64,000 nucleotides of DNA from Actinomycetota bacterium (GCA_040757835.1 JBFLWJ010000008.1:58464-122463), one strand, 5' to 3'. Numbered from the stretch's first letter, positions 4,421-56,762 are shown. Notes: generated from the sequence alone by a model not told the origin. Numbers and translations are program-made.

Positions 4421-4891
4421 TCAGCCGCCCTTCTCCACCTTGATCTTCCTGGGCGCGCTGTAGTTCAGTGGCCCGCCCGCGACCCACTCGTCCACGCCCA
4501 CCTTCCTTATCTTCCTCAGGTTCTTGACGTGGGCGTCGCCGTGGACGGGAACCAGGAAATCCAGCTTGGAGCAGGCCGCGAAATCTCCGCATTCCCAGCA
4601 TCCCTCGTAACCCTTTTTGGAAGCGCACTGGGCGATATGGCAGAACCGGGAGCGGCTGCTCACCTTGCAGCCCTTACACCTCAGCTTGACCATATTGCCG
4701 AGGTACTCGTAGGTCTCCCGGTACTTCTCCGCGTCGAAGAAGGGGATGACCTCGGCGATCTTGTCAAACCTGACCCGGCGCAGTTCCTTGCGCAGGTCCC
4801 GCGCCAGGTCGGGGATGGTCCCGGTGTTGAAAGCGCAGTCCCCGCAGTACAGCCCGCAGTAGGCGGTCATCTTGACGTTATCGGCGGCCAT
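4421..4891 (-). CDS. DUF3795-type cysteine-rich protein
   Basis: YCGLYCGDCAF...CKGCK...CWECGDF motifs typical of DUF3795. An SD (GAGGGAGGAG) lies directly upstream of the ATG at 4891. An in-frame ATG at 4912 is an alternative start. Confidence 0.55.
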   Translation of the reverse strand: MAADNVKMTAYCGLYCGDCAFNTGTIPDLARDLRKELRRVRFDKIAEVIPFFDAEKYRETYEYLGNMVKLRCKGCKVSSRSRFCHIAQCASKKGYEGCWECGDFAACSKLDFLVPVHGDAHVKNLRKIRKVGVDEWVAGGPLNYSAPRKIKVEKGG

Positions 4892-4950
4892 CTTCCGCTC
4901 CTCCCTCGTCATACCCGGCCATCTTCCACTCCTCCCTCGTTATACCCAGC
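4889..4950. repeat. 31-bp tandem duplication (2 copies, about 90% identity) spanning the SD and start codon of the DUF3795 gene
   Basis: catcttccgctcctccctcgtcatacccggc followed by catcttccactcctccctcgttatacccagc. On the minus strand this duplicates GAGGGAGGAG-N6-ATG. Confidence 0.8.
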
Positions 4951-7591: not shown

Positions 7592-7698
7592 CTTCCTTGC
7601 CGTTCTCGAGCGACTTCCAACGGGGCCGGAAAGCAAGCGATCTCCCGTAGTTATATAATTGTCTTGCAGCCGGGTACGCTCGACACGGGGGGAAACAC

Positions 7699-9384
7699 AT
7701 GATCTCGGAAGGCGCTTATCAGGAACTCGAGGAGGCCCTCGGCCCCGAGAACGTCTCGCGCGAGCCCGCCGTGCTCGACACCTACGCCTGGCAGGCCTTC
7801 ACCGAGGTGGTGGGCGAGACCAGCGGCTGGACCCCCAACCGCCCCGCCGCCGTCGCGCTTCCCGGCAGCACCGCCGAGGTGCAGGAGGTGGTGCGCATCT
7901 GCGGCAGGCACGGCCTGCAGTTCAAGGCCATGTGCACGGGTTGGGGCGTCTGGAACATGGTCGGCGGCAAGGACGTGGTCCAGCTGGACCTGCGCCGCAT
8001 GGACCGCATCCTCGAGATAGACGAGAAGAACATGTACGCGGTGGTGGAGCCCTACGCCATCGGCGCGCAGCTGCAGGCCGAGGCGATGAAGCTGGGGCTC
8101 AACTGCCATATAATCGGGGCCGGCTCCGGCACCTCGCCCCTGGCCAGCGCCACCTCGCTGTGCGGCTACGGGTGGTCGGGACTGACCACCTCCTACAGCG
8201 CCCGCACCCTGCTGGCCACCGAGTGGGTGCTCCCCGACGGCGAGCTGTTGCGGATAGGGACGGTGGGGTCCGATCTCGCGTGGTCCTGCGGCGACGGCCC
8301 GGGGCCAAGCCTGCGCGGCATCGCCAGGGGATATATCGGCAACTGCGGCGGCCTGGGCGTCTTCACCGCCTGCGCGATCAAGCTCTTCCCGTGGCCCGGG
8401 CCACCGGAGCCCGCGGTTAAGGGCACCCTGCTGGACTCCTTCACCGAGGTCCCAGGCACCGGTGCCATGTTCATCTGTGCCTTTCCATCCTTCGAGTCCT
8501 ATAGTGAGGCGGCGTACCGGCTGGGCAACGCCGAGGTCGGGTACATGCACTGCAAGGTCGCCGTCGGCGCTTTTCTCTCCACCATGGTGCCCCGGCTCAT
8601 GGGCAGGATAGTGGCGTATCCCGCCATGAAAGCGGCCCTGCTCACGCAGCAGCACATGTTCGTCTTTCTCATCAACGCGTACTCCCGCGAGGAGTTCGAC
8701 TACCAGGAGAAGGTACTGAAACAGGCCGTGGCGGAGACCGGGGGGATATGCCTCGACCTCCGTGCCATGCCCTCCATGCATGCCGCCATGTGGTGGGGGT
8801 TTGTCCGGGCGTCCCTCCCGCCCCTCATCTTCCGGCGGGGAGGCAGTTTCGGCACCTCTTTCGGGGCGCTGGAGGCCTGGGACCACCCAGTTTTGCAGGC
8901 GAAGATAGCGGCGGAGCTGAAACAGAGCTTCATCGACCAGGGAAAGCTCATCGACGACCTGGCCGACAACGCCTGGGGGGGCATCTACGAGGGCAGTACC
9001 TGCTTCGGCCACCAGGAGGAGCTCTACCTCTACGACCCGCGCGACCCCGCCATGATGGCCAGCGCCACCGAGTACCTGGCCGGTACCTTCATGGCCACGG
9101 TCGGCCACAACCTGGGACCGGGCCTGGGCTTCGCCCTGGGCAACATCGGGGCCGAGCTCTTCGGCCCCATCATCGGCGGCTACCACCACCGCCTGCGCGA
9201 GGTGAAGCAGTCCTTTGACCCCGACGACGTCAGCGACGCCGGGTTCTACATCTCCCTGGACCCGGTGAAGACGATAAGGGAGACCATCGCCAGGCAGCCG
9301 GAGATGGCCCAGTTCCTCGCCCCCCGCCTGGAGGAACTAGGCCTTGAGAGCGAGGGGAAAGGGGTGGGCGAGGATGACGGTTGA
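7699..9384 (+). CDS. FAD-binding oxidoreductase (FAD-linked oxidase, PCMH/GlcD-like)
   Basis: 561 aa with an N-terminal FAD-binding PCMH-type region (PGSTAEVQEVVRICGRHGLQFKAMCTGWG) and a large C-terminal substrate domain. Confidence 0.6.
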   Translation: MISEGAYQELEEALGPENVSREPAVLDTYAWQAFTEVVGETSGWTPNRPAAVALPGSTAEVQEVVRICGRHGLQFKAMCTGWGVWNMVGGKDVVQLDLRRMDRILEIDEKNMYAVVEPYAIGAQLQAEAMKLGLNCHIIGAGSGTSPLASATSLCGYGWSGLTTSYSARTLLATEWVLPDGELLRIGTVGSDLAWSCGDGPGPSLRGIARGYIGNCGGLGVFTACAIKLFPWPGPPEPAVKGTLLDSFTEVPGTGAMFICAFPSFESYSEAAYRLGNAEVGYMHCKVAVGAFLSTMVPRLMGRIVAYPAMKAALLTQQHMFVFLINAYSREEFDYQEKVLKQAVAETGGICLDLRAMPSMHAAMWWGFVRASLPPLIFRRGGSFGTSFGALEAWDHPVLQAKIAAELKQSFIDQGKLIDDLADNAWGGIYEGSTCFGHQEELYLYDPRDPAMMASATEYLAGTFMATVGHNLGPGLGFALGNIGAELFGPIIGGYHHRLREVKQSFDPDDVSDAGFYISLDPVKTIRETIARQPEMAQFLAPRLEELGLESEGKGVGEDDG

Positions 9385-9826
9385 GAGGGAGCTGCTGGCC
9401 CCCTGCGGGCTGTACTGCGGCGTGTGCGCGGTGCGCATCGCCCACGCGGGCGGCAACGAGAAGTTCAAGGAGAAGCTGGTCTCGGTTTATGGCGTTAGCT
9501 CGCCGGACGATATACGCTGCGGCGGCTGTCTCTCGGACGACCTCTTCTTCTATTGCCAGGTCTGCCCCATCCGCGACTGCTGCGCCGGCAAAGGAATAGA
9601 GGGCTGCCACCAGTGCGACGACTGGCCTTGCGAGACCATCGACGCCTTCCCCCTCCCCGTGGGCAAGAAGGTGATCATGCGCGCAATCCCCGCCTGGAGG
9701 GAACTGGGGACCGAGGCCTGGGTGGGAGCGGAGGAGGAGCGCTACCACTGCCCCGAGTGCGGCTATGCCCTCTTCCGCGGCGCCAAGCGCTGCCGTAGCT
9801 GCGGCAGCGCGGTTGACGTCGATTAG
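9374..9826 (+). CDS. DUF3795-type cysteine-rich protein
   Basis: CGLYCGVCAV...CGGC...YCQVCPIRDCC...CHQCDDWPC...CPECGY...CRSCG. The start overlaps the upstream FAD-oxidase stop. Confidence 0.55.
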   Translation: MTVERELLAPCGLYCGVCAVRIAHAGGNEKFKEKLVSVYGVSSPDDIRCGGCLSDDLFFYCQVCPIRDCCAGKGIEGCHQCDDWPCETIDAFPLPVGKKVIMRAIPAWRELGTEAWVGAEEERYHCPECGYALFRGAKRCRSCGSAVDVD

Positions 9827-13313: not shown

Positions 13314-13508
13314 GCTTCCGTTCCCATCTCCATCGCGGCACGCCCGGGGTCAGGCCCGCATGGTGCCAGGGTCCGCTCGCTTGCGGCACGGGCCGGACCC
13401 CAAATGGGCCACGTCTCAAGGGCATCTCCTCCGGCACCGAAGACAAGAAGAAGGGTGGACGCTGGTCCATCCCGGACTCTGCAGCGGTGCCCAACCAGGA
13501 GGTGCGAG

Positions 13509-15239
13509 ATGTTTCTGGATCGCTTTTCGTGGTCGATATTCGGGTCTCCTTTCAAGCGTGACGGCTCCGATCCCGCCGACCTCGTGGTCGCAAACGCGGA
13601 CGTCTTCACCTGCGACCGCGCCAATCCGCGGGCGGGCGCCGTGGCAGTGAGGGACGGGAGTATCGTCTATGTGGGCGATGCCCGCGGGGCGGCGGTACAC
13701 GTGGGACCGGACACGCGGGTAATCGACGGCAGGGGCAGGGTCCTCACCCCGGGGTTCATCGACAACCACTGCCACGTGGTGTGGATCGGCGGCATGATGG
13801 CCTTTATGACCAAGCGTCTCATGGAAGCCGAGAACCTGGACGAGATGCTCGAGATGGTCCTCGAGCAGTCCCGCGCCCATCCCGACCTCCCCTTCGTGTC
13901 CGGCGTGGGCTGGAGGTTCGAATACGCCCCGGGCGGATCTCCCGACCGCGCGGTCCTGGACAGGGTGGTCACGGACCGGCCGGTACTGCTCATGTCCATC
14001 TGCGGCCAGTGCGGGTGGCTCAACACCCGCGCCGCCGAGCTGCTCGGGGAGCGCAATCCCCAGGCGCTGCGGCGTCTGGCGCCCAGGCTCGATGCTTCCG
14101 GGACCTGCACCGGAGCCCTGGACCACTTCCACTCCTTCTCCCCGCTCGATTTCTTCGGCGAGGAGGAGATAGCCCCCGTCTTCGAATCCGCCGTGCCGGA
14201 GGCTATCGCCGCGGTGATGGACGAGGCGGTCTCGGTGGGGGTGACCGCCATGGACGACGTACAGTTCTACCGCCCCTTCGTGCCTTACGTGCTCGCGTAC
14301 CGGGAGCGCGGCATCTTCGACAAGGTGCGCCTGCGCGGCTCCCTCTACGTGGACCCCCACGACCTCGAGGACGAGGGCAGGCTGCGTGAGGACCTGGCCT
14401 GGTGGATGGACATGGGCGGAGAATCGGACGGGCGCCTGGCCCTCGGCCGCTCCGTGAAGTTCTACATCGACGGCACCGTGGGCAACCGCACCTCGTTCCA
14501 GCTCGAACCCTATACGGACGATCCCGGCTACTACGGCAGGCCGGACTGGACCCAGGAGGATTTCGACCGCGTCATCGAGATCGTCGACGCCATGGGACTG
14601 CAGGCCTGCACCCACGCCTGCGGCGACGCCGGCATCCGCCGCGTTATCAACTCCATCGAGCGGGCGCGTGGGCTCAACGGCGCCTGGGACTCGCGCCACC
14701 GCATCGAGCACTGCGAGTTCCCCACCCCGCCGGACCGGGAGAGGATGGCCCGCCTCGGCATGCAAGCCGCCATGCAGCCTGCGCATTCCTTCGGCGACGA
14801 GGTCGTAGAGCGGCTCCTGGGGCACGAGAGGATGCAGGGCTGGCACCCCTGGCGCAGCCTGGAGAAGGCGGGGGTGCCGGTCTCCTTCGGGAGCGACTGG
14901 TGCAACAGCCCCCTTAACCCCTTTTACGGCCTCCTCCTCGCCACCACCAGGATGAACTACAAGGGCAAGACCGACTGGGCGCCGGAGGAGAAGATCGACA
15001 TAGAGGACGCCGTCAGGCACTGGACCATCGACTCCGCGCGCGCGCTGAAGATGGAAGAAAAGATCGGTTCGCTCGAGCCTGGCAAGCGCGCCGACTTCGT
15101 GCTCTGGAACACCAGCCCCCTCAAGGTCAGCTCCTGGTGGTTCATGCTCACCCACGAGATGGAACTGGGAAAGCTCGAGGGCTTCGTGGACATGACCTTC
15201 GTGGACGGAAAGCCCGTCTACGAGAAGCCGCGCAGCTAG
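13509..15239 (+). CDS. amidohydrolase-3 family metal-dependent hydrolase (YtcJ-like)
   Basis: GFIDNHCHV metal-binding motif, HACGD and SDW motifs. 576 aa with AGGAGG upstream of the ATG. Confidence 0.75.
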   Translation: MFLDRFSWSIFGSPFKRDGSDPADLVVANADVFTCDRANPRAGAVAVRDGSIVYVGDARGAAVHVGPDTRVIDGRGRVLTPGFIDNHCHVVWIGGMMAFMTKRLMEAENLDEMLEMVLEQSRAHPDLPFVSGVGWRFEYAPGGSPDRAVLDRVVTDRPVLLMSICGQCGWLNTRAAELLGERNPQALRRLAPRLDASGTCTGALDHFHSFSPLDFFGEEEIAPVFESAVPEAIAAVMDEAVSVGVTAMDDVQFYRPFVPYVLAYRERGIFDKVRLRGSLYVDPHDLEDEGRLREDLAWWMDMGGESDGRLALGRSVKFYIDGTVGNRTSFQLEPYTDDPGYYGRPDWTQEDFDRVIEIVDAMGLQACTHACGDAGIRRVINSIERARGLNGAWDSRHRIEHCEFPTPPDRERMARLGMQAAMQPAHSFGDEVVERLLGHERMQGWHPWRSLEKAGVPVSFGSDWCNSPLNPFYGLLLATTRMNYKGKTDWAPEEKIDIEDAVRHWTIDSARALKMEEKIGSLEPGKRADFVLWNTSPLKVSSWWFMLTHEMELGKLEGFVDMTFVDGKPVYEKPRS

Positions 15240-15524
15240 GCCGCGGCCGCCTGGCATCTGCTTAGGGGAGGCCGGGACTCTTCTTCTGCTCTCTCCGCCC
15301 TCGGGCTCTCAGGCTTTCGTGGTTTCCGGGCTGCAAGGGCGGGTTGAGAATATCCTCGTGAGGCGGGTTTACGCCAACCGGCCCGACCTTCTAGGCGGTC
15401 TTCTTCGATGCCGCCGAGACCCCTCCCTACTCGATTTGCTAATATATAGAGGCCTGCGAAGCCCGCTTTCCCGCAAACCGCGTCGTGCCTCAGTGGGTCT
15501 TTTCCATTGCCAGGGAGGTTTCGG

Positions 15525-16751
15525 ATGGAGACGCTCAAGCCAGCAAAGCAGTTCGACGAGGAGGCATGCACCCGCTGCGGCCTGTGCTTCGGCGAGTGCC
15601 CGGTGATGGGCCTGCCGGTGAAGACGGCGCGGGAGGAGATCGCGCGCCTCATCGCCGGGGAGCCCACGCGGCATGTGCTGCGCAAGTGCGCCAGCTGCTT
15701 CGCCTGCGACCATATCTGCCCCGAGGGGTGCAACCCCACGGAACTGGTGCTGCAGCGCTGGCACGAGCATTACCTGCGCGAAGGCCTCCCGGTCCGGGCC
15801 AGGTACTACTCCCCCCACGAGGAGCTGAACTTCCGCACCTACGTGGTGGCCAGGATGCCCGCGGACGAGCGGGAGCTGCTGCGCAAGTGGGCCGACCACT
15901 CCCCGACCGAGGAGGTCCTCTACCCCGGGTGCAACATCATCACCGCCCCCTTCCTCACCCGCACCAGGGCCCTGGAGGGGCTGGACATCCGCGGCACCCT
16001 CGACTACTGCTGCGGCGAGACCTACTACCGCATGGGCCTCTTCGACGAGGTGCAGAAGGTGGCCCGCCGCCTGGAGAGATACTTCAAGACCCTGGGTGTA
16101 AAGCGCGTGAATATCCTGTGCACCGCGGGATGCAACATGTTCATGAACGTGCTCCCAGCCTACGGCGTCGACTTCGACTTCGAGGTGCGGCCCTACCTTC
16201 CGGTGATCCTCGCGAAGCTGGAGTCGGGAGAACTGGAGATCGTGAAGAAGCTCGAGGGCACCGCCACCATCCAGGAGTCCTGCTACGGCAAGCAGCTGGG
16301 GGATGAATACATGGACGTCCCGCGTCGTATCCTAGAGCTGACCGGCATGGAGGTGGTGGAGGAGAAGAAGCGGGGGGACTGTGCGCTCTGCTGCGGCATC
16401 GCGGGGGGATTCCCGCCAACCTCAGGCTACCACATCATGGACATCACCCTGGCCACCCTGAAGAGCCTGCTGCAGGCGCGGGGCACCGGGGCCGATTACA
16501 CCGTGGGTTACTGCGCGGGCTGCCTGCAGATGCTCTCCACCGGCCGGGTGCTCATGCCCCTGGGCGGGCCCGTCTATCACGTCCTGGAGATGCTCTCCAT
16601 GGCCCTGGGGGAGGAACCCCGGCATCCCATGAAATGGCGTGCCCGGGCTTTCCTTGCGGGCACCCTGCGCAACCAGGGACCCATCACCCTGTCCCGGAAG
16701 AGGTACCGCATCCCGGAGATACCGGAGGTGCCGCCGGCAGTGGATGGCTGA
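15525..16751 (+). CDS. HdrD/GlpC-like Fe-S oxidoreductase, paralog 1 (2x[4Fe-4S] ferredoxin motifs + 2 CCG domains)
   Basis: CTRCGLCFGECP and CASCFACDHICP cluster motifs. Two cysteine-rich CCG domains (YCCGETYY, CALCCGIAGG, YCAGC). RBS GGGAGG. Confidence 0.7.
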   Translation: METLKPAKQFDEEACTRCGLCFGECPVMGLPVKTAREEIARLIAGEPTRHVLRKCASCFACDHICPEGCNPTELVLQRWHEHYLREGLPVRARYYSPHEELNFRTYVVARMPADERELLRKWADHSPTEEVLYPGCNIITAPFLTRTRALEGLDIRGTLDYCCGETYYRMGLFDEVQKVARRLERYFKTLGVKRVNILCTAGCNMFMNVLPAYGVDFDFEVRPYLPVILAKLESGELEIVKKLEGTATIQESCYGKQLGDEYMDVPRRILELTGMEVVEEKKRGDCALCCGIAGGFPPTSGYHIMDITLATLKSLLQARGTGADYTVGYCAGCLQMLSTGRVLMPLGGPVYHVLEMLSMALGEEPRHPMKWRARAFLAGTLRNQGPITLSRKRYRIPEIPEVPPAVDG

Positions 16752-16807
16752 TCCTCCAGGTGATCCCCGGCCGGCAGGCCTGGAACCGGTTGAACGCAGG
16801 AAGGCAT

Positions 16808-18235
16808 ATGGGGGTAGAAGAGATGCATGAACGGCGATTCCGCTTCTTCCGCGAGGACCTCTGCGACCGCTGCGGCGACTGCTTCGCCGCCTGTCCCTAC
16901 CTGGAGCTGCCGCAAGAGGCGGCGAAGCGGGAGATCACCAGGCTCATCGAGGAGGGCGAATCGCTCGCCCTCGACGCGTGCAACACCTGCCACACCTGCG
17001 ACGCCGTTTGCCCCAACGGAGCCGACCCCTACGAACTGGTGCTGGAGCGCTGGAGCGAGAGGCGCCGGGGGGGCCTGCCCACCACCGCCCGCCTGGTGAC
17101 CCCGTCCGAGCCGTGCAACATCTGGTCCTCCCTCAAGGCGGTGATGCCCGAGGAAGAGCTGGCGCTGCTGCGCTCCTGGGACGACTTCAGCCCCCGCGAC
17201 GAGATCTGCCTCACCGGCTTCTACACCAGCGTGGTGCCGTACATCCTGCAGGCGGAGGTCCTCGCGGACCTGCCCAGGGTGGCCGGCTCGGAGGCCCTCT
17301 TCGGCTGCGCGGGGGACATCTACAAGACGGGGCGCTTCGACATGGTGGAGCAGATAGCGCGCCGCCTGGAGAAGGTCTTCGGGGAGATGGGCGTTAAGAA
17401 AGTGGTCTGCTCCATGAGCGCCGAGGGGATGGTGCTCAAACATATCCTGCCCGAGCGGTTCGGGGCCCGCTTCGGCTTCGAGGTGGTGGCCCTGGACGAC
17501 TGGCTGCTGGAAAGGCTTCGGGCCGGGGAGATCGTCCCCGTGAGAGAGCTGGGCATGCGCGTGACCGTGCACGACAACTGCCTCTCCAAGATGGAGGGCG
17601 GGAGGCTGCAGGAGGTCAACCGCGAGATCGTGCGGCGCACCGGCTGCGATATCGTGGAGATGCGGCACAACCGCAAGAACTCCCTGTGCTGCGGCTTCGG
17701 CGCGGCGGCCTCCCGTTTCCGGGTCATGGACATCATGTCCTCGGGCTACCGCAGGCTGAAGGAGATCGAGGCCACGGGGGCGGACGCGGCGGTCGTCTAC
17801 TGCCCCGCCTGCCTCTTCATCCTCTCGGTGATCAAGGAGATGGCCGGGGCCGAGATGCCCTTCTACCACCCCGCGGAGCTGGTGGAGATGGCCGCGGGCG
17901 GAGAGCCGGCGCGCCGCCACGAGGAGAGGGCCTGGGAGATGATGGCGGTGATCAGCAACCACCTGCTCAAGTACGCCCTCTTCCCGGGCCACCGCGGGAG
18001 CTTCCAACCCGCCCGCATCTCTCCCGAGATGCAGCCGCTGCCCGGGCTGCCGCGCTGGGACCGCCTTCGCATGCGGGCCCTGACAGCCCTCTACCGTAGC
18101 CCGGTGGTCCAGAACCGGGCCACGCGGAAGACCGTCTCCCTCGGCTTCAAGGCGGCGGTGGCGGCGTACGGCGCGGCGGCACGTTTGGGGTCAACCCCGG
18201 CCCGCGCCCCATTGAACGGCTTGCGGCATGGATAA
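16808..18235 (+). CDS. HdrD/GlpC-like Fe-S oxidoreductase, paralog 2 (with roughly 70-aa Ala/Arg-rich C-terminal tail)
   Basis: CDRCGDCFAACP, CNTCHTCDAVCP, LCCGFGAAAS and YCPAC. Same architecture as paralog 1 at roughly 40% identity. Confidence 0.65.
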   Translation: MGVEEMHERRFRFFREDLCDRCGDCFAACPYLELPQEAAKREITRLIEEGESLALDACNTCHTCDAVCPNGADPYELVLERWSERRRGGLPTTARLVTPSEPCNIWSSLKAVMPEEELALLRSWDDFSPRDEICLTGFYTSVVPYILQAEVLADLPRVAGSEALFGCAGDIYKTGRFDMVEQIARRLEKVFGEMGVKKVVCSMSAEGMVLKHILPERFGARFGFEVVALDDWLLERLRAGEIVPVRELGMRVTVHDNCLSKMEGGRLQEVNREIVRRTGCDIVEMRHNRKNSLCCGFGAAASRFRVMDIMSSGYRRLKEIEATGADAAVVYCPACLFILSVIKEMAGAEMPFYHPAELVEMAAGGEPARRHEERAWEMMAVISNHLLKYALFPGHRGSFQPARISPEMQPLPGLPRWDRLRMRALTALYRSPVVQNRATRKTVSLGFKAAVAAYGAAARLGSTPARAPLNGLRHG

Positions 18236-18277
18236 GAGCTGACCCCGGAAGTGCCATTGGAACAAGGGGGGTGTGAC

Positions 18278-19477
18278 ATGGCGGATGATGACAGGTACGA
18301 TTTCTTCCGTTACGACGACTGCGACCTCTGCGGCGACTGCCTCTCGCGCTGCCGCTACATGAACCTGGGCAGGGCCGAGGCCGTCGAGGAGATGAAGCGC
18401 ATGCGGGCGGGTGAGCCCACCCGCGTGGTGCACCGCAAGTGCATCAGTTGTTACGCCTGCGACGCCTTCTGCCGCAACGACTGCCGCCCCTACGAGCTCA
18501 TCACCTCGAGCTGGCACCGGCGCTACCGCGAGCGGGGCCTGCCGGTGCGGGCCTCCTACCTCATGCCCGCCTCCATCCCCAACTTCCGCACCGACATGAT
18601 CAGGACAATGCAGCCGTGGGAGCAGGCGCTGCTGCGCGAGTGGCAGGGCACCCCTCCCGAGGGCGAGCTGGTGCTCTACCCCGGCTGCAACGCCCTCACC
18701 ATGCCCCACCTCCTCAAGGGCCCATACATGGAAGGCGTGACGGTTTCCGGCGACTACGACCTCTGCTGCGGCGAGATGTACTTCCGCATGGGCCTCTTCG
18801 ACGTGGTGGAGAAGGTGGCCGAGAAGCTCACCGCCCACTACCGCGGCCGGGACATCGGCACCATGCTCTTCGTCTGCCCCGCCGGGCTCAACATGTTCCG
18901 CAACGTCCTGCCGGGCTCCTTCGGAGCGGAGCTGCCCTTCCAGACGAAGTTCCTCGGCGAATACCTGCTGGAGAAGGTGGAGGCGGGCGAGATCGAGATC
19001 AAGCGGAGCCTGGGCCGTTCCGTGGCCGTGCACGACTCCTGCCACGGGCGCATCCTGGGCGGGGAGATAACGGCCTCGGCGCGCCGGCTCTACGAGCTCA
19101 TGGGGCTGGAGACGCGCGAGATGGTGCGCAACCCCGACGAGGGCCTGTGTTGCGGCATGGCGGCGGGGTGCAACCGCTACCGCCCCGACGATATGTACTT
19201 CGCGGCGGTGAAGGAGCTTCACGCGGCGGCGAAGACCGGCGCGGACGAGCTGGCCACTTACTGCACGGGCTGCCACCTCACCCTGGCGATGATGCGCTGG
19301 CTCTACCCCACCCGCCAGCCGGTGCGGCACCTGCTGGAGTACCTGCAGGAGGCTATGGGGGAGGCGCCCTGTCTACCCGCGCCGAAACGCACCCTGCGCA
19401 TGCTGGGCAACGTGGCGGTGAAGGCCTTCCCGCAGCTACTCTCGCGCAAGACCTACCACATCGAGATCAGCAGTTGA
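18278..19477 (+). CDS. HdrD/GlpC-like Fe-S oxidoreductase, paralog 3
   Basis: CDLCGDCLSRC, CISCYACDAFC, LCCGEMYF, LCCGMAAGC and YCTGC. Third tandem paralog. Confidence 0.65.
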   Translation: MADDDRYDFFRYDDCDLCGDCLSRCRYMNLGRAEAVEEMKRMRAGEPTRVVHRKCISCYACDAFCRNDCRPYELITSSWHRRYRERGLPVRASYLMPASIPNFRTDMIRTMQPWEQALLREWQGTPPEGELVLYPGCNALTMPHLLKGPYMEGVTVSGDYDLCCGEMYFRMGLFDVVEKVAEKLTAHYRGRDIGTMLFVCPAGLNMFRNVLPGSFGAELPFQTKFLGEYLLEKVEAGEIEIKRSLGRSVAVHDSCHGRILGGEITASARRLYELMGLETREMVRNPDEGLCCGMAAGCNRYRPDDMYFAAVKELHAAAKTGADELATYCTGCHLTLAMMRWLYPTRQPVRHLLEYLQEAMGEAPCLPAPKRTLRMLGNVAVKAFPQLLSRKTYHIEISS

Positions 19478-19680
19478 AAATCTTTAGTCGTGGTGCGGCT
19501 TTAACACAGGTAAGTTGAACGGCGCCGCGGCCTGGACGATAATTGTAACGGCCTCGCTGGATGCCTGACCGCCTACGTCGAAAGTTTCTTTGAGAGGCCG
19601 CGTTGCCGCCTCGGTTCGACGAGGAAATCCAACGGAAACGATCATGCCGCATGCCCGGAGCTTGACCAAGGAGGTAGGAG

Positions 19681-20823
19681 ATGGACTTCACGCTCAATGA
19701 CGAACAGAAAGCCCTGAAGCAGACGGTGCACGAGTTCGCGGCCAACGAGATCAGGCCGGTCTCCATGCAGCATGACGAATCGGGCGAATTCGCCTGGGAC
19801 GTGGTGCGCAAGGCGGCCATACTGGAGCTGACCTATTCCGGCGTGCCCGAGGAGTACGGCGGTCCCGGCCTCGGCATGTTGGACAATACCATCGTCATCG
19901 AGGAACTGGGATGGGGTTGCGTCGGCATCGCGTCGGCCATCGCCCTCAACCAGATCGCCATCCTCCCCGTCCTCCTGGCCGGCAGCGAGGAGCAGAAGAA
20001 GACGTACCTTCCCCGCCTCACCGACCCGGACAACCCGCGCCTGTGCGCTTTCGGCCTGACCGAGCCGGAGGCCGGCTCCGACGCCGCCTCCCTCAAGACC
20101 CGGGCGGTGCGCGACGGCGACGACTACGTTATAAACGGCGGGAAGTGCTTCATCACCAACGGCGGCATCTCGGACTTCTACACCATCTTCGCCACCGTGG
20201 ACCCGGAGCGGAAATACCAGGGCATCACCGCCTTCATCGTGGATGCCGACACCCCCGGCTTCTCCATCGGCAAGATCGAGCACAAGATGGGCATGCGCGC
20301 CTCCCAGACCGCTGAGCTCGTCCTGGAGGACGTGCGGGTACCGGCCGCCAACATCCTGCGCGGCGAGGGGCAGGGCTTCTACGTGGCCATGGAGACCCTT
20401 GACACCTCCCGCCCCGGCGTTGGGGCCATCGGCGTGGGCCTGGCGCGCGCCGCCTTCGAGGAGGCCCTGGCCTACTCAAAGCAGCGGGTGCAGTTCGGCA
20501 AACCCATCTGCCGCCAGCAGTCCATCGCCTTCATGCTCGCGGACATGGCCACCAAGGTGGACTACGCCCGCCTGCTCTGCCACCGCGCCGCCTGGATGCT
20601 GGACAACAAGATGGACGCCATCAAGGAGTCGTCCATGGCCAAGTACGTCGGCACCGACGTGGCCATGGAGGTGTGCACGGACGCGGTGCAGATCCACGGC
20701 GGCTACGGATACATGAAGGAGTACCTGGTGGAGAAGTTCTTCCGCGACGCCAAGATCCTGCAGATCGTGGAGGGGACCAACCAGATACAGCGGCTGGTGC
20801 TGTCGGCCCAGCTCATCGCGTAG
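19681..20823 (+). CDS. acyl-CoA dehydrogenase (short/medium-chain type)
   Basis: Full-length ACAD fold with CFGLTEPEAGSD and the C-terminal catalytic-Glu region YGYMKEYLVEKFFRDAKILQIVEGTNQIQ. RBS AAGGAGG. Confidence 0.85.
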   Translation: MDFTLNDEQKALKQTVHEFAANEIRPVSMQHDESGEFAWDVVRKAAILELTYSGVPEEYGGPGLGMLDNTIVIEELGWGCVGIASAIALNQIAILPVLLAGSEEQKKTYLPRLTDPDNPRLCAFGLTEPEAGSDAASLKTRAVRDGDDYVINGGKCFITNGGISDFYTIFATVDPERKYQGITAFIVDADTPGFSIGKIEHKMGMRASQTAELVLEDVRVPAANILRGEGQGFYVAMETLDTSRPGVGAIGVGLARAAFEEALAYSKQRVQFGKPICRQQSIAFMLADMATKVDYARLLCHRAAWMLDNKMDAIKESSMAKYVGTDVAMEVCTDAVQIHGGYGYMKEYLVEKFFRDAKILQIVEGTNQIQRLVLSAQLIA

Positions 20824-20904: not shown

Positions 20905-21996
20905 TCATCCCTTATAGATGTTGGCGTGGCCGAAGCCGGGTGTGCCGAAGGGCAGCGGCAGCAGCGGCTTCTCGCGCTCGGTGAGCTTCACGATGCGGTC
21001 CATCCGCTCCGCGCCGACGAACTGGACGTGCCTCTCCATGCGCCGCACGTTGGGGCGGACGAAGCGCTTCCACAGCTCCTTCAGGTAGAAGCTGCGGCGG
21101 AACCCCGCCAGGAAGCGGTCGAACTCCGCCTGGGCGGCGGCCGGGTCCGACACGGCCATGGCGGCCACTTTGCCGGTGACCAGTGCCCCGCTGATCCCGA
21201 AGCCCATGAAGGGGTCGATGGCCCCGGACATGGTGCCGCACATGATCAACCCGTCGCGGAAGAGCCGGTAATTGTCCGCCCTCGCCAGGGGGACGGCGGA
21301 CGTCTGGTATTCCCACTCGTCGTGCTCCACGCCCTCGTTGCGCACCATGAAGTCCTTGTACCTCTCCAGGCCCCTCTCGTCCACCCGCTTCCCGAACGAG
21401 AAGAGCAGGTCGAAGTAGTAGTTGTTCACCGCAGACAGGTAGCCGTACTCGGTGATGCTCTCGTCGAACCACAACCAGGCCAGGTCGGTGAAGCCGATCT
21501 CTCCCCGCGACAGCCACATATGAACCGGCAGGAAAGGGACGTCCAGCATCTTGTACGCCTTGGGCACGAGGCCGCAGGCGATGATGGTGCCGGGCTTGAG
21601 CCTGGGCACGTCCTCCTCCCGCAGCGGCGACGAGAACTCGAACTCCACCCCCAGCTCCAGGCACTCCCGGTAGAGCAGGGTGTCCAGGCTGCCCGGACGG
21701 TCACCCCTCTCCACCCCGAAGACCTCGTAGACAGGGAACTGGAACGCGGTATCGTGCAGGTAGGCGGGGCAGCGCAGCAGGGCGTGGAAGACGGGGCCCA
21801 CGTCGATGCCGATGTACCGCGATGTCTTTTCGATATCGATGGGGGTGACGTGGGTGGAGGGATTGTAGGCCTTGGTGCCGCCGTAGGAGTCCTCGGTCTC
21901 CCGGATCACCACCCGGTAGTCTTCCCGCGCCAGGTTGATGGCGGCGACCATGCCGCTCATGCCCGCGCCGTAGATGAGTGCCTCTTTTTTCCGCAT
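20905..21996 (-). CDS. FAD/NAD(P)-binding oxidoreductase (function unknown)
   Basis: N-terminal ALIYGAGMSGMVAAINLA GxGxxG Rossmann motif. 363 aa. Confidence 0.55.
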   Translation of the reverse strand: MRKKEALIYGAGMSGMVAAINLAREDYRVVIRETEDSYGGTKAYNPSTHVTPIDIEKTSRYIGIDVGPVFHALLRCPAYLHDTAFQFPVYEVFGVERGDRPGSLDTLLYRECLELGVEFEFSSPLREEDVPRLKPGTIIACGLVPKAYKMLDVPFLPVHMWLSRGEIGFTDLAWLWFDESITEYGYLSAVNNYYFDLLFSFGKRVDERGLERYKDFMVRNEGVEHDEWEYQTSAVPLARADNYRLFRDGLIMCGTMSGAIDPFMGFGISGALVTGKVAAMAVSDPAAAQAEFDRFLAGFRRSFYLKELWKRFVRPNVRRMERHVQFVGAERMDRIVKLTEREKPLLPLPFGTPGFGHANIYKG

Positions 21997-41726: not shown

Positions 41727-42083
41727 ATGAAGATCAGATATGCCACCATGGCTGTTGCGGACATGGATGAGTCGACCAGGTTCTACACGGAAGTCTTGGG
41801 ACTTGAAGTAGAAAGCCGGCACAATCCCCGCCCTGGGTTGACGATCACGTTATTGAAGGGGGAAGGGGATGCGATGATAGAACTCATAGAGGATACCGAG
41901 AATCCCCGAGAAACAGGCCTGTTTTCGGTGGGAATGGAAGTCGAAGACATACGCGCCACAGTGGAGGAACTCAGATCTAAAGGGGCCAAGATCACCATGG
42001 AACCCATACCGATAACCGTTGGGACCCTTGCTTTCCTGGAAGACCCGAACGGGGCCCAGATAGCGTTGATCCAGCACCACTGA
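41727..42083 (+). CDS. VOC-family (glyoxalase/bleomycin-resistance fold) protein
   Basis: 118 aa with the paired beta-alpha-beta-beta-beta modules typical of VOC proteins ([21 protein letters not shown]...). Confidence 0.65.
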
Positions 42084-42377: not shown

Positions 42378-43220
42378 TTACAAGTCGGTTCTCTTAAGGC
42401 CTTTCAAGATCTGCTCTATCTGATCCAGGCATTCCTGCTTATCGTAGTTGCCGAACATGTGATATAACTCGGCCATGTATTCCCCTATTCCCATGAATGC
42501 GAAACCCAGGATCTCGGGGTTGGCATCTTCCTTTATCTCCCCCTGTTCCACTGCTTGTCTGATATCCCATATGACCGGCTGCACGATATAGTTGAGGCTC
42601 TCCTTATACTTCTCCACAAAGGTCTGGTTGTCGGAAACGGCTATCCCTCTCAGTTGGTTCATCATGTCCCGCCATTTGGGATAGGCGTCGATGAAAGCAT
42701 CCCCCCTCTTGAGCAGTCGGGGGACTGCCTCCTTTTCCTGCCTGATCCCATCCCATACCTCGTTGAACATCTGGTGGAATATATAGTCCGTGCATTCCAG
42801 GAACAACTCCTCCTTATTGTTGAAATACGTGTAGAACGTGGACTTGCTCATCTGTAACTCGCCGACGATATCCTGGATGCTGACCTTATCGTAACCCTTC
42901 TGCGTGAAGAGCTTCGCCGTTGTATGTATTATCTCTTGCCTCCTGTCGATAGATTTGCCCTTGTTTTCCGGCTGCGATTTCTCCGCCTCAAAACGAGCCA
43001 GCTCATCCTTGATGAACCTTATCGGCATCTTCTCCTCTTCCCGCAGTTTCCTTATAAGCTCGAGCCTCTTCACCTCCTCCTCGGTGTAATAGGCCATGGT
43101 CTTTCCGGTCCGCACATGGGGGGCTATCAGGCCCTCCCTTACGTAATACCTTATGGTGGATTTGGGGATGCCCGTCGATTTCTCGAGCTCGCTTATGGTC
43201 AGGTATTTATGCTTTTCCAA
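42378..43220 (-). CDS. dual-HTH transcriptional regulator (N-terminal MerR-type HTH fused to TetR-type HTH/ligand domain)
   Basis: LTISELEKSTGIPKSTIRYYVREGLI (MerR HTH) followed by RRQEIIHTTAKLFTQKGYDKVSIQDIVGELQMSKSTFYTYFNNKEELF (TetR HTH). GC content is markedly lower than the surroundings. Confidence 0.6.
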   Translation of the reverse strand: MEKHKYLTISELEKSTGIPKSTIRYYVREGLIAPHVRTGKTMAYYTEEEVKRLELIRKLREEEKMPIRFIKDELARFEAEKSQPENKGKSIDRRQEIIHTTAKLFTQKGYDKVSIQDIVGELQMSKSTFYTYFNNKEELFLECTDYIFHQMFNEVWDGIRQEKEAVPRLLKRGDAFIDAYPKWRDMMNQLRGIAVSDNQTFVEKYKESLNYIVQPVIWDIRQAVEQGEIKEDANPEILGFAFMGIGEYMAELYHMFGNYDKQECLDQIEQILKGLKRTDL

Positions 43221-43394: not shown

Positions 43395-43430
43395 AGTAAT
43401 GTACCGTACCGTACTATTTATAGTACATGG
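43395..43430. promoter_or_regulatory. operator-like site in the divergent promoter: GTACC direct repeats plus the 7-2-7 inverted repeat GTACTATttATAGTAC
   Basis: atgtaccgtaccgtactatttatagtacatgg lies in an AT-rich region between the regulator gene and the thiolase operon. Confidence 0.4.
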
Positions 43431-43489
43431 AATTACCCGAAATTGCCGGTTATTTTCGAAGGTTTCACGCCGGAGGGAAGGAGGCCCAC

Positions 43490-44692
43490 ATGGAAAAGGG
43501 CGAATTCGCTATCATCGGCACCGGCGAGGTGCCCTGCGGCAACTACCCCGCGCGCTCGGAGTTCGAGATCGCGTACACCGTGGCCCGGGATGCCATCCGC
43601 GATGCGGGGATCGACAAGGACGAGATAGGGGCGGTGGTCTGCGCGCAGCACATCATGTCCAATCCCGACAACGACTACAACACGGAGATGGTCTTCGGGC
43701 GCCTCCCCGAGGCCATCGGCGCCAGGGGCTGCAAGATAACCTGCATGACCTCGTCGGGGGGCGCATCCAGCTTCTCGCTCAGGAAGACCGCGGAGGGCAT
43801 ACTCAGCTCTGGAGAGACGGACACGGTGCTCGTGGTGCACGCTCAGCGCTTCTCGACCTTCACCCCCAACGAGCAGGCCAAGTATTTCTCAATCGCCGGT
43901 TCGGATGTGGAGTGGGAGGTCCCATACGGGATGACCTACAACGCGCTGGCGGCTATGGTCACCCAGGGATACATGGCCTACACGGGCACCACTATGGAGC
44001 AGGTGGCCGCGGTGTGCGTGGCCAACCGCAAATGGGCCATGCTGCAGCCCAACGCCATGTTCAACCAGAAGGAGATCACGGTGGAGAAGGTGCTCTCCAG
44101 CCGCATGGTGGCCTATCCACTCACCGCCTTCATGTGCAACGTGCTGGGGGACGGGGGCACCGCCTTCGTCATGACCACGGCTGAGAAGGCTAGAATGGTT
44201 TCCGACCGTCCGGTATATATCCTCAGCGATTCCTCCAGCTATTCCCACCGCACCATCACGAGGTCGAAGTCCAGGGACCTGGGCAAGATGGGCGAGAACA
44301 TGGCACCGGTTGCCAACGCCGCCTACGAGAGAGCCGGCCTGGGGCCTGAGGACATGGACATCTACCAGGTCTACGGTTCTTACCCCACCCTGCAACTCAT
44401 CGTCATGGACGCCCTGGGCATCTGCGAGCCGGGGAAGTCGGGCGCCCTGGTGGAATCCGGCGAGACCTCGCCCGGCGGCAAGTACCCGGTGACCACCAAC
44501 GGGGAGGCTCTCTCCTTCGGGCATACAGGGACCGGGGTGGGCATCGCCCTCCTGGCCGAGTCGGTGCGGCAGCTCCAGGGCAAAGCGGGCAAGGCCCAGG
44601 TGGAGGGGGCGAAGTTCCTCATCGAGAACACCGGCGGCGGCGCCTTCATGGACTGCCACTTCACCGTCCTGGGCAGCGAGATACCTGGTTGA
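43490..44692 (+). CDS. SCP-x-type thiolase-like protein (lipid-transfer protein)
   Basis: Thiolase fold with a Cys-containing N-terminal region (IIGTGEVPCGNY), C-terminal GHTGTGVG and NTGGG. RBS GAAGGAGG. Confidence 0.75.
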   Translation: MEKGEFAIIGTGEVPCGNYPARSEFEIAYTVARDAIRDAGIDKDEIGAVVCAQHIMSNPDNDYNTEMVFGRLPEAIGARGCKITCMTSSGGASSFSLRKTAEGILSSGETDTVLVVHAQRFSTFTPNEQAKYFSIAGSDVEWEVPYGMTYNALAAMVTQGYMAYTGTTMEQVAAVCVANRKWAMLQPNAMFNQKEITVEKVLSSRMVAYPLTAFMCNVLGDGGTAFVMTTAEKARMVSDRPVYILSDSSSYSHRTITRSKSRDLGKMGENMAPVANAAYERAGLGPEDMDIYQVYGSYPTLQLIVMDALGICEPGKSGALVESGETSPGGKYPVTTNGEALSFGHTGTGVGIALLAESVRQLQGKAGKAQVEGAKFLIENTGGGAFMDCHFTVLGSEIPG

Positions 44693-44746
44693 GCAGGAGG
44701 CGGCGGCAAGAACGTGTTGATCTGAAGATATTAGGAGGATCGTGAG

Positions 44747-45205
44747 ATGAGCGAAGAAAAGGTGAGCATCAAGGACCTGCTGGGCCTTTCCGACGAGGAG
44801 ATGCGGAAGCCGCTGCCCGTCCCGACCAAGTGGTCGCAGCCCTTCTGGGACGCGGCGAAGGAGCACCGTCTTGTCCTCAAGAAATGCTCCGCGTGCGGCA
44901 ATATCGACCACCCGCCCTACCTGTACTGCACTGCCTGCCAGGCGGACGAGCATGAATGGATCGAGGCTTCGGGCAAGGCGACCCTCTACTCATATGCCGT
45001 GAACCACTTCGGGGTGCCCTTCCCCTTCTGGGATGATATGCCGTATGTCCTGGCCATGGTCGACCTCCCGGAAGGTGTGCGCATGATCTCCAACATCGTT
45101 GAGTGCGACCTCGAAAAGCTCGTAAACGGCATGGAGCTGGAGGTGGTCTTCGAGGAAGTTTCCGGCGATATCACCTTGCCCAAATGGAAGCCGGCCAAAA
45201 AGTAG
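44747..45205 (+). CDS. DUF35 OB-fold/zinc-ribbon protein (thiolase partner)
   Basis: CSACGNIDHPPYLYCTACQ rubredoxin-like zinc ribbon followed by an OB-fold. The canonical partner of SCP-x thiolases. Confidence 0.7.
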   Translation: MSEEKVSIKDLLGLSDEEMRKPLPVPTKWSQPFWDAAKEHRLVLKKCSACGNIDHPPYLYCTACQADEHEWIEASGKATLYSYAVNHFGVPFPFWDDMPYVLAMVDLPEGVRMISNIVECDLEKLVNGMELEVVFEEVSGDITLPKWKPAKK

Positions 45206-45227
45206 ACGGCGCGAGAAAGGAGCGGGT

Positions 45228-46022
45228 ATGCAAGATTATCAATACCTCATCTACGAGATAGAAGAGGATATCGGGAAGATAACCCTGAACCGACCCAAGA
45301 AGCGCAACGCCCTCAACGCGGAGCTCATCGCCGAGCTCAAGGACGCGGTGCCGCGCATGAACGCGGAGCCCGAGGTACGCTGCGCCATCATCACCGGCGC
45401 CGGCGAGAAAGCATTCTGCGCCGGCGCGGACCTCCCCATCTTCGACACCCTGCAGGAGGTCGAGAAGGCCTACGCGTACCTTCGCAACGACGGCGGGACC
45501 ATCACCCGTGCCCTGGAGACGGCGGAGTTTCCGTGGATAGCGGCGGTGAAGGGTGCCTGCGTGGCGGGCGGATTGGAGCTGGCCTTGTGCTGCGACATGA
45601 TCGTGGCGGGCGAGAACTCCTTGTTCGGCGTGCTTGAGATAAACATCGGGCTGCTTCCCGGGTGGGGAGGTACCGTGCGCCTGCCCAGGGCTATACCGGT
45701 GCGCAAGGCCAAGGAGCTTCTCCTCACCGGGGCCATGATCGACGCCCAGGAGGCGTACCGCCTGGGATTGCTGAACAAGGTGGTCGCGGTGGAAAAGGTG
45801 GAGGAAGAGGCCATGAACATGGCGCGCAGCGTCGCCTCCAAGTCAAAGGCGGCCGTACGCGCCGGGATGAACATCGTCAACAACTCGCTGGCATGTGCCT
45901 CCATAGACGCCGCCCTGGCCCTGGAGCGTGGCACCATCATGACCCTGGTCGGCGCGGAGGAGACGCGCAAGTACCTGGAGCCGGCCATCCGCATGATGCA
46001 GGACATGGAGAAGAAGGACTGA
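45228..46022 (+). CDS. enoyl-CoA hydratase/isomerase (crotonase family)
   Basis: ITLNRPKKRNALN...GAGEKAFCAGADL...AAVKGACVAGGLELALCCD crotonase motifs. Confidence 0.85.
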   Translation: MQDYQYLIYEIEEDIGKITLNRPKKRNALNAELIAELKDAVPRMNAEPEVRCAIITGAGEKAFCAGADLPIFDTLQEVEKAYAYLRNDGGTITRALETAEFPWIAAVKGACVAGGLELALCCDMIVAGENSLFGVLEINIGLLPGWGGTVRLPRAIPVRKAKELLLTGAMIDAQEAYRLGLLNKVVAVEKVEEEAMNMARSVASKSKAAVRAGMNIVNNSLACASIDAALALERGTIMTLVGAEETRKYLEPAIRMMQDMEKKD

Positions 46023-46035
46023 GAAGGGAGCGTAT

Positions 46036-47196
46036 ATGGACTTCTTGCTGACGGAGGAACAGAAGATGCTCCGGGAAACGTTCCGTGAGTTCTGCCGGAA
46101 AGAGATCACCAAGGAGTATGTGCGGTGGCTGGACGAGAACTGCGACTTCCCCCCCCAGGACATGGTCGAGAAGATTGCGGACCTCGGGTTCTTCGGTATC
46201 TCCATCCCTGAAGAATATGGAGGAGCGGGCGCGGGCATGTTCGACCTCTGCGTGGCCCTGGAGGAGCTGGCCACGGCGAGCGTCGCCATGGCCATATCCA
46301 TGGGGCTCACGCCCGCCTTCGGCGGCAGGCCCGTTGCCGAGCTCGGCACGGAGGAGCAGAAGCGGACGTACCTCCCGCCGATCGCCGAGGGGAAGGAGAA
46401 GTGGTGCATGGCCCTGACGGAGCCCGCCGGGGGAACCGATATCCTGGGCGCCATCGCCACCACCGCTGAAAGGGACGGGGACGAATACGTGGTGAACGGC
46501 GCGAAGATGTTCATCTCCGGTGCCCACGTGGCGGACTGGATACTGCTGGTCGCCATCACCGACAAGGAAGTCAAACGCTCGAAGGGCCTCTCCGTCTTCA
46601 TCGTCGATGCCCGCAGCCCAGGCATCACCATCAACCTCGTCCGCAAGGTCGGCATACACGCCTGCGGCACCACGGAGATATTCTTCGAGGACGTGAGGGT
46701 CCCGGCGGCCAACCTGCTGGGGACCGAGAACATGGGCTGGTACCACATCCTGGGGACCCTGAACCCGGAACGTATCGGGACCTCCATGCTCTCGCTGGGT
46801 ATCGCCAAGGCGGCCTTCGACGACGCCCTGCAGTACGCCAAGGAGCGCACGGCCTTCGGCAAGCCCATCGGGCAGTTCCAGATCATCCAGTATTACCTGG
46901 CGGATATCGCCATCGAGATCGAGAACGCCCGCAACCTCATCTACAAGTGCGCGTGGCTCTGCGACGCGGGGGAACGCTTCGACGTGGAGGCCACCATGGC
47001 CAAGATCGTGGCCTGCCGCGCCTCGGAGAAGGCGGCCCTCCACGGCATGGAGATATTCGGCGGGTACGGTTTCACCATGGAATACGATATGCAGCGGCAC
47101 TTCCGGGACTACAAGCAGATGATGTTCAGCCCCATCTCCGACGAGATGAGCATGAACTATATCGCTCAGAGCTGCGGCCTGCCTAAATCATATTGA
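46036..47196 (+). CDS. acyl-CoA dehydrogenase
   Basis: ACAD fold with ALTEPAGGTD and C-terminal IFGGYGFTMEYDMQRHFRD. Confidence 0.85.
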   Translation: MDFLLTEEQKMLRETFREFCRKEITKEYVRWLDENCDFPPQDMVEKIADLGFFGISIPEEYGGAGAGMFDLCVALEELATASVAMAISMGLTPAFGGRPVAELGTEEQKRTYLPPIAEGKEKWCMALTEPAGGTDILGAIATTAERDGDEYVVNGAKMFISGAHVADWILLVAITDKEVKRSKGLSVFIVDARSPGITINLVRKVGIHACGTTEIFFEDVRVPAANLLGTENMGWYHILGTLNPERIGTSMLSLGIAKAAFDDALQYAKERTAFGKPIGQFQIIQYYLADIAIEIENARNLIYKCAWLCDAGERFDVEATMAKIVACRASEKAALHGMEIFGGYGFTMEYDMQRHFRDYKQMMFSPISDEMSMNYIAQSCGLPKSY

Positions 47197-47226
47197 GACT
47201 GCTGAGGGAAAAAGGAGGGGACCTGG

Positions 47227-48783: not shown

Positions 48784-48800
48784 GGATTCAGGAGGTTATC

Positions 48801-50165: not shown

Positions 50166-50223
50166 GGAGGATACCGGCAAGAGTCGGGGGCTGTTAATCG
50201 CCTCAGGATAAAAGGAGTAGATC

Positions 50224-56336: not shown

Positions 56337-56449
56337 TTGCTCAACACAAAATGTACCCTCACTTTATCTGTTCTCGAGATATAATTCACTGCGCATCGTG
56401 AATATAATACGATATGGTAATATATGTTAAGCTCGTGCACCTCGAAAGG

Positions 56450-56602: not shown

Positions 56603-56762
56603 TATATTTGGGCATTTACTAGGTACTCTTGTGGATTAATTGCGCTAATTGCCTATCTGACACCTGAATCAATGGTGTGCTTTCAGCACCACAGATGTAT
56701 CCTATACTCTGTAGAAGGGGTTGTAGAATACTGTAAAACCTATTTTACATGAGGGGGATGCT

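Follow-up and report, generated by a model that had tools for sequence, protein, structure and literature searches.

Three HdrD-like Fe-S protein paralogs of Actinomycetota and archaea that may form an old, co-inherited soluble complex

Introduction

In strict anaerobes, it is only partly understood where the relatively high-potential electrons of acyl-CoA oxidation go; the routes established so far rely on the electron-transferring flavoprotein (ETF) together with a membrane-bound EtfD/EMO, or the electron-bifurcating Bcd-Etf. HdrD-like proteins are also found as DsrK, TmcB and HmcF, which are subunits of membrane complexes of sulfate reducers. Here we analysed a stretch of 64,000 nucleotides from an Actinomycetota bacterium (GCA_040757835.1, JBFLWJ010000008.1:58464-122463; hereafter the window, with a G+C content of ~65%), in which three consecutive genes on the + strand, designated A, B and C (15525-19477), encode paralogous Fe-S proteins and are followed by a gene for an acyl-CoA dehydrogenase (ACAD).

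The closest solved structure is that of EtfD, the mycobacterial ETF:menaquinone oxidoreductase. It has five membrane helices with heme b, two cubane clusters, a linear [3Fe-4S] cluster on a four-cysteine CCG1 site and, on CCG2, a non-cubane [4Fe-4S] cluster that is capped and made non-catalytic by His583; neither FadF nor DgcB, both homologous to EtfD, has the CCG1 cysteines (PMC13083937).

An earlier note on this DNA had described the trio as a tandem triplication upstream of the ACAD, and had taken the divergence of the copies as a sign of specialisation, by substrate or partner, in an anaerobic electron route from acyl-CoA oxidation. Its observations were confirmed in part, and its interpretation found partial support. 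In the reading that we favour, and to which we give about an even chance, an old operon whose genes have been inherited together would encode an HdrD-like Fe-S oxidoreductase that is soluble and hetero-oligomeric. Searches of the literature turned up no earlier account of the trio.

Three adjacent genes encode fused HdrC-like and HdrB-like domains

Gene A (15525-16751, 408 amino acids), gene B (16808-18235, 475 amino acids) and gene C (18278-19477, 399 amino acids) all lie on the + strand, and their products are 32-42% identical to one another (A-B 35%, A-C 42%, B-C 32%), bearing out the three consecutive paralogs of the earlier note. The protein of gene B is NCBI entry MEW6554318.1 (100% identity). 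The adjacent accession, MEW6554319.1, is a 399-residue protein in the 90% cluster of gene C's closest homolog, and both entries, labelled '(Fe-S)-binding protein [Actinomycetota bacterium]', lie on a 124-kb contig of a metagenome-assembled genome (MAG). At the DNA level the only repeats among the three genes are short motif stretches, 60-85% identical and spaced ~1290 and ~1460 nt, and the trio is therefore not an assembly artefact; together with the protein identities, this rules out recent, identical duplicates.

Each protein matched the Pfam CCG domain (PF02754) above the cut-off of 20.6 bits (37.5, 40.5 and 42.9 bits), in a single stretch per protein, and 4Fe-4S dicluster domains were matched in A (Fer4_10), B and C. 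The proteins begin directly at the ferredoxin motif, and each carries the two ferredoxin-type Cys4 motifs previously noticed: all eight cysteines of the two CxxCxxCxxxC motifs are present in A, B and C and are 90-100% conserved in a cysteine census of 249 aligned, non-identical family members. In gene C these motifs end in CR instead of CP. With a CCG match above the gathering score and two CxxCxxCxxxC motifs, all three proteins belong to the CCG/HdrD-like superfamily, and each is shown to be an HdrC-like 2x[4Fe-4S] domain fused to an HdrB-like double-CCG domain.

The proteins differ in the cysteines of the CCG sites. The C-terminal site has all five cysteines in A, B and C and is kept in all three clades of the census. 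At the N-terminal site, gene A has five of five, the last pair being CxxxC rather than CxxC, which gives it ten CCG cysteines in total (C136, C162, C163, C199 and C203; C253, C289, C290, C330 and C333); within clade A four of the five N-terminal positions are invariant and the fifth is 68% conserved. Gene C has four of the five, and the fifth is never present in clade C. Gene B has one of five plus one shifted cysteine, and across 104 B-type sequences three of the five positions show 0% cysteine, all clade B members having LTGF in place of PGC and GCAG in place of CCG in the alignment. Two complete cysteine sets, as in HdrB and HdrD, are thus found only in gene A, and there with CxxxC in the first. 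The claim that each protein has two CCG domains holds for the fold but fails for the cluster ligands: the C-terminal set is complete throughout, and the N-terminal set is lost in B.

Gene B further carries a conserved C-terminal extension of ~90 amino acids, for which its AlphaFold2 model (pLDDT 92.4, compared with 93.2 for the model of gene A, both confident) shows helices at residues 371-391, 416-430 and 437-459. A Kyte-Doolittle hydropathy scan in 19-residue windows gave no plausible membrane helix in A, B or C, no window exceeding 1.6 except at the buried CxxC strand of B. Anchoring of the trio through membrane helices is hereby rejected, which still allows for a peripheral amphipathic tail.

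Relation to EtfD, heterodisulfide reductases and other CCG proteins

EtfD (Mycobacterium smegmatis, PDB 9ojn) was the best Foldseek match of the window proteins (gene A, E 8.8e-11 and TMq 0.63; gene B, E 1.1e-8) as well as the best profile match (E 6.7e-11), at a sequence identity of 15-17%. The trio shares with the soluble core of EtfD/EMO the succession of two cubane [4Fe-4S] motifs and two CCG halves, and gene B resembles FadF and DgcB in having lost the CCG1 cysteines (PMC13083937). Unlike EtfD/EMO, a single polypeptide, the trio consists of three paralogous subunits that have neither the five-helix membrane domain nor heme b ligands nor a quinone site, and no linked etfAB genes were found, either in the window or in the related loci (1.77 Mb). 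Gene A departs from EtfD at the cluster sites too: in the profile alignment its CC stands opposite C-T of the EtfD CCG1, and its C-T-A-G opposite C-P-H-C, which puts alanine at the position of the capping His583. In these CC and Ala positions gene A looks more like the catalytic HdrB sites than like EtfD.

The fusion of an HdrC-like to an HdrB-like domain is also the architecture of HdrD of HdrDE, and corresponds to HdrB plus HdrC of HdrABC (PDB 5odc, 8rvu). HdrB was matched with a Foldseek E of 3e-8 (TM ~0.6, normalised to HdrB length) and a profile E of 4e-10, and the ten CCG cysteines of gene A recall the two non-cubane clusters of HdrB. Unlike in HdrB and HdrD, the N-terminal site of gene A ends in CxxxC; the window contains no gene for an HdrE or HdrA partner, and the Hdr models of NCBIfam scored far below their cut-offs (CoB_CoM_SS_B, 16-21 bits against 345; HdrC models, 16-23 against 160-350).

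The same was seen with every other named NCBIfam model run, namely those for GlpC, GlcF, DsrK, TmcB, HmcF, TfrB, LdhH and NF045663, scores ranging overall from 16 to 53 bits against cut-offs of 160-800. The highest were NF045663 (49-53 bits), TfrB (37-52) and LdhH (29-50), all below cut-offs of 385-800 and with only the HdrD-like part aligning. Gene B reached 35.7 bits with TmcB, 34.1 with HmcF and 17.5 with DsrK (cut-offs 400-750), and neither dsr genes nor DsrMJOP, Tmc or Hmc partner genes are found in the window of this MAG. GlpC models (TIGR03379, NF008369) gave 18-36 bits against 278-280, and there is no glpAB in the window; LutA shares the CCG fold with the trio (TM 0.70, normalised to LutA length) and ranks with EtfD and HdrB among its nearest solved structures. 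Scores for the GlpC/GlcF/LutA type all lie below cut-offs of 278-800, no GlpAB, GlcDE or LutBC genes are adjacent to the trio, and the trio proteins are not fused to a flavoprotein domain; as with other flavoenzyme-partnered CCG proteins, flavoenzyme genes (the ACAD and an FAD protein) are nearby. The assignment to the HdrD/GlpC type made earlier is therefore upheld at the level of ferredoxin dicluster plus CCG architecture, with the ETF-linked EtfD as the best structural match and HdrB the next. Since all NCBIfam scores are below cut-off, A, B and C represent unnamed subfamilies.

Distribution of the A, B and C types

Homolog searches recovered orthologs of A, B and C at 66-90% identity, almost all from uncultured Actinomycetota MAGs and always in the order A-B-C. 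In addition, two MAGs of Methanolliviera (Methanoliparia), a lineage reported to use coenzyme M (CoM) and coenzyme B (CoB), carry the same three types on a shared contig in the order C-B-A. These archaeal proteins are 56% (A), 51% (B) and 45% (C) identical to their counterparts in the window, compared with 32-42% among the window paralogs themselves. Clustering of 316 sequences gave three clean groups, and in a neighbour-joining tree with outgroups these had bootstrap values of 100 (A), 90 (B) and 94 (C), with similar branching within A and B. On this sequence evidence A, B and C are separate old clades, inherited together in bacteria and archaea, and not as the product of a triplication within one lineage. 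Such joint inheritance fits a hetero-oligomer better than three independent acceptors.

We then counted gene arrangements over all loci with a family member, ~140 in number, drawn from genome and metagenome scans and here given L numbers. These fall into 25 lineage groups by single-linkage clustering at 70% identity on crude open reading frame calls, a caveat that we count against the complex proposed here. The order ABC or AbC (lower case marking a more divergent clade member) was found in 24 loci, which comprise the lineage of the window plus L061 and L141; the order BAC in 11 archaeal-looking loci; and CBA in four loci, those of Methanolliviera. Complete trios therefore occur in four of the 25 lineage groups and in three gene orders. 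A further 25 loci have A with B in either order, and 11 have A plus a second A-like paralog. B-type genes stand alone in 14 loci, from Smithella, Desulfobacterales and Syntrophaceae and also from the trio-bearing Actinomycetota MAGs, where they are a second copy; some A-type and C-type genes are solitary too. Where database gene calls exist the gaps are tight: 2 and -1 nt in L004, 0 and 3 nt in L061, and 3 nt in L058. Of 1.84 billion cluster representatives, 130 were retrieved with a B-type profile at E <= 1e-30; the family is small but well defined. As to the solo B-type genes, the second copy in trio-bearing Actinomycetota MAGs is ~44% identical to B (L029, L031, L033, L035, L036), and in L056 a gene of this kind comes after a CooT-like gene.

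In three other lineage groups, solo A genes are preceded by genes for a DUF169 protein and a 314-residue ferredoxin-domain protein, the stop of the latter overlapping the start of A by ~3 nt (L120-L122, L126, L135). This coupling suggests that A depends on an Fe-S partner, a part played by B in the window; the ferredoxin-domain protein may be an alternative partner of A in place of B. Overall, these arrangements are consistent with A as a core subunit that is joined by an Fe-S partner, in most cases the degenerate paralog B, and at times by the extra subunit C.

Organisation of the probable operon

The gene run on the + strand was defined by third-position GC content and Pfam matches. In the window, genes A and B are separated by 56 nt and genes B and C by 42 nt. 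Upstream of A, a promoter-like box, GATTTGCTAATATATAG (15433-15449, + strand), lies ~76 nt 5' of the gene and is the sole conserved stretch of the amidohydrolase-A spacer among relatives; it occurs once in the window, with zero occurrences expected by chance. A strong ribosome-binding site, AGGGAGG (~15513-15519, + strand), follows 3' of it. A single operon of A, B and C appears to be the best explanation for these short spacers and the conserved upstream box, although taken jointly with the complex we would rate it no higher than an even call.

The gene preceding this box encodes an Amidohydro_3 hydrolase (13404-15239) on the same strand as the trio. Still further upstream are two DUF3795 genes (4421-4939, - strand; 9341-9826, + strand) and a gene for a GlcD-like FAD_binding_4 flavoenzyme (7651-9384, + strand); DUF3795, DUF169 and FAD_binding_4 genes recur near the trio in the relatives L001 and L004.

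A predicted soluble complex

The predicted association of A, B and C draws on their co-inheritance, their tight gene spacing and the complementary degeneracy of their cysteine sites. Within such a complex, gene A would be the candidate catalytic or entry subunit, with two non-cubane-type clusters, since it keeps ten CCG cysteines and lacks the capping histidine of EtfD. Gene B, with its N-terminal site lost clade-wide and a helical tail gained, would likely be a non-catalytic electron-wire or scaffold subunit, and gene C, with a four-cysteine N-terminal site and a presence in only some lineages, a likely accessory subunit. Together they would hold about six cubane and four to five CCG-type clusters, and electrons would pass through them between ferredoxin or flavoenzymes of the cytoplasm on one side and, on the other, a soluble acceptor, whether of thiol/disulfide type or another.

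Several observations weigh against this proposal. A-, B- and C-type genes are each also solitary in some genomes, so that each can probably work without the others. The neighbourhoods do not converge on one substrate either: the census gave mixed contexts with no consensus partner gene, the neighbours being ACAD, enoyl-CoA hydratase and ligase genes in some lineages and quite different genes elsewhere. In L061 (6249-13882) the trio is directly downstream of corrinoid methyltransferase genes, encoding S-methyl_trans, Met_synt_B12-like and URO-D family proteins and a B12-binding protein, a context unlike that of the ACAD. The BAC trios (L078-L082, L088, L089, L095, L098, L100, L101 and L114) have downstream of them genes for a PLP-dependent (PALP) enzyme and for two amino-acid permeases; for these, an archaeal host is suggested by the presence of neighbours like archaemetzincin and NTPase_1 (observed in L058). 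In L024 and L025 the modules are flanked by recC and a peptidase gene and lack metabolic neighbours. Finally, the putative cluster types are read from the cysteine patterns alone.

The acyl-CoA dehydrogenase and the absence of ETF genes

The ACAD gene, as had been recognised from the sequence, lies downstream of the trio at 19681-20823 (+ strand). It encodes a short-chain-type protein of 380 amino acids with three Pfam ACAD domains, whose best NCBIfam match is AcrC (433 bits, under the cut-off of 640). Between gene C and the ACAD is a spacer of 203 nt (19478-19680, + strand). This corresponds in length to the 200-bp leader claimed earlier, but not in structure: the spacer folds no better than its shuffles (z = +0.26) and has no Rfam match, and a promoter scan found instead a sigma-70-like site, TTGAAC-17-GATAAT (19515-19543), conserved among relatives. 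In an alignment with five relatives, in which the spacer varies from 203 to ~600 nt, only this promoter-like site and the ribosome-binding site AAGGAGG just before the ATG are conserved. These results rule out a riboswitch or structured leader, and the ACAD therefore appears to have its own conserved promoter.

Within the lineage of the window the ACAD is 89-92% identical among relatives and usually follows the trio directly. It is missing beside the trio in L010, L012 and L013, and displaced by 1.7-5.4 kb in L014, L015 and L017. The ACADs near modules in other lineage groups, in two of which a single locus has one, are 29-35% identical to that of the window and 0.9-7.8 kb away; they are not its orthologs, and a specific ACAD partnership is rejected on this ground. 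Among the most recurrent neighbour families are ACAD (five of the 25 lineage groups), enoyl-CoA hydratase (four) and acyl-CoA ligase (four). Since ACADs are dense in these genomes (the window has two in 64 kb), the cross-lineage ACAD signal is not clearly above chance. We infer that the ACAD could be no more than one among several donors, and is not a dedicated partner; the link of the trio to acyl-CoA oxidation is loose.

No ETF Pfam domain was found in any sizeable gene scanned across the 64-kb window, and tblastn with Escherichia coli FixA and FixB (E <= 1e-3) matched nothing in the window or the 141 related loci, together 1.77 Mb; nor was etfAB present within 10 kb in any of ~140 related loci. 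The absence of EtfAB nearby is thereby confirmed, and linkage of the trio to ETF rejected for the loci searched. In some close relatives (L015, at 15518-17127; L014, L016, L017, L070 and L071), the ACAD is directly followed, on the opposite strand, by genes for a FixX-like ferredoxin (96 amino acids) and a FixC-like flavoprotein (~460 amino acids). The window lacks both, and another FAD protein directly follows the ACAD there. That protein, an FAD/NAD(P)-binding flavoprotein of the geranylgeranyl-reductase superfamily (20905-21996, - strand, 363 amino acids; Pfam NAD_binding_8, with a weak NCBIfam GG-red-SF match), is convergent with the ACAD, with AddB and then AddA beyond; its synteny with the trio is limited to the lineage of the window (L010, L011, L012, L015, L016, L021).

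The ACAD bears on the first of the alternatives to the soluble complex, in which A, B and C would be three independent, specialised EtfD/EMO-like acceptors passing electrons from the ACAD, directly or through an ETF with its genes elsewhere, to quinone or a disulfide. We consider this unlikely, even though the ACAD is on the same strand, one 203-bp spacer after C, and adjacent in most close relatives. EtfD is the best structural and profile match, and B lacks the CCG1 cysteines just like the ETF-linked FadF and DgcB (PMC13083937); the presence of ACAD, enoyl-CoA hydratase and acyl-CoA ligase genes near modules in 5, 4 and 4 of 25 lineage groups, and of FixC-like and FixX-like genes beside the ACAD in some relatives, points the same way. 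Against this, the trio has no plausible membrane helix and no heme b domain, so that there is no evident quinone site, and no ETF gene accompanies it; an EtfD-like, quinone-linked acceptor, one of the kinds first proposed, is not borne out. The ACAD itself has a conserved promoter of its own, and can be missing beside the trio, and the ACADs near modules of other groups are distant and non-orthologous, at a frequency near chance in ACAD-rich genomes, all of which leaves the claimed electron route from the ACAD weak. The old, co-inherited A/B/C pattern also speaks against a recent specialisation for partners.

A possible disulfide reductase

The second alternative is a disulfide reductase of Hdr type, an analog of HdrD or DsrK acting on a low-molecular-weight thiol, a protein disulfide or a trisulfide, with the ACAD adjacent through lineage synteny only. 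This too we regard as improbable, despite the full C...CC...C..C pattern in both CCG halves of A. The alanine of A at the position of EtfD His583 (PMC13083937) would be in keeping with such a role. So would the rank of HdrB as the next best match after EtfD and the weak matches of B to the NCBIfam models for DsrK, TmcB and HmcF. The occurrence of trios in Methanolliviera, archaea reported to use CoM and CoB, and the PLP-dependent enzyme and amino-acid permeases after the BAC trios can be read in the same sense. However, the neighbourhood census found no DsrC-like, HdrA-like or thiol-cofactor biosynthesis gene consistently near the modules, and the N-terminal site of A ends in CxxxC, not CxxC, with its fifth cysteine just 68% conserved. 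Furthermore, the bacteria that carry the module are not known to make CoM or CoB.

That the three are functionally unrelated paralogs, adjacent since an old duplication and each with a different, unlinked partner, would account for the single A-, B- and C-type genes of some genomes, but we think it highly improbable given that the genes have stayed adjacent in both bacteria and archaea, in four lineage groups and in three orders, with gaps often of 0-3 nt, that the A and B clades branch similarly, and that the degeneration of B is complementary to the completeness of A.

Other features of the window

A second cluster resembling beta-oxidation genes, again without ETF, occupies 43427-51237. It encodes an SCP-x-type thiolase with a ChsH2-like OB-fold protein, an enoyl-CoA hydratase, an acyl-CoA ligase, an OYE-family flavoenzyme, an Amidohydro_2 protein and a second ACAD, ~40% identical to that at 19681-20823. 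Beside it are a divergent MerR/TetR-like regulator (42378-43220) and a glyoxalase-like gene (41727-42083). The region 55224-60585 has low GC (0.46-0.52; GC at third codon positions ~0.4, compared with 0.65 for the window) and contains genes for an AbiEii-type toxin, a KAP P-loop NTPase and a QueC-like protein. This is probably a defence island gained by horizontal transfer.

Significance

The module described here is conserved, soluble and HdrD-like and comprises two or three paralogs. It is carried by uncultured subsurface and digester Actinomycetota, relatives of syntrophs and Methanoliparia, and its proteins are currently annotated only as '(Fe-S)-binding protein'. It is a clear target for heterologous expression and spectroscopy. 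Moreover, its CCG sites with five, four and one cysteines offer a natural series for the evolution of non-cubane and linear clusters.

A more far-reaching reading, which we hold to be distinctly unlikely, is that the trio would represent an undescribed class of enzyme: a soluble, anchor-less heterotrimer of HdrD type that re-oxidises cytoplasmic flavoenzymes such as ACADs without ETF and without quinone, with a thiol/disulfide couple or ferredoxin as acceptor. Such a class would be common to anaerobic Actinomycetota, Deltaproteobacteria-type lineages and the alkane-oxidising archaea of the Methanoliparia. If true, it would be a new way for strict anaerobes to dispose of the high-potential electrons of beta-oxidation.

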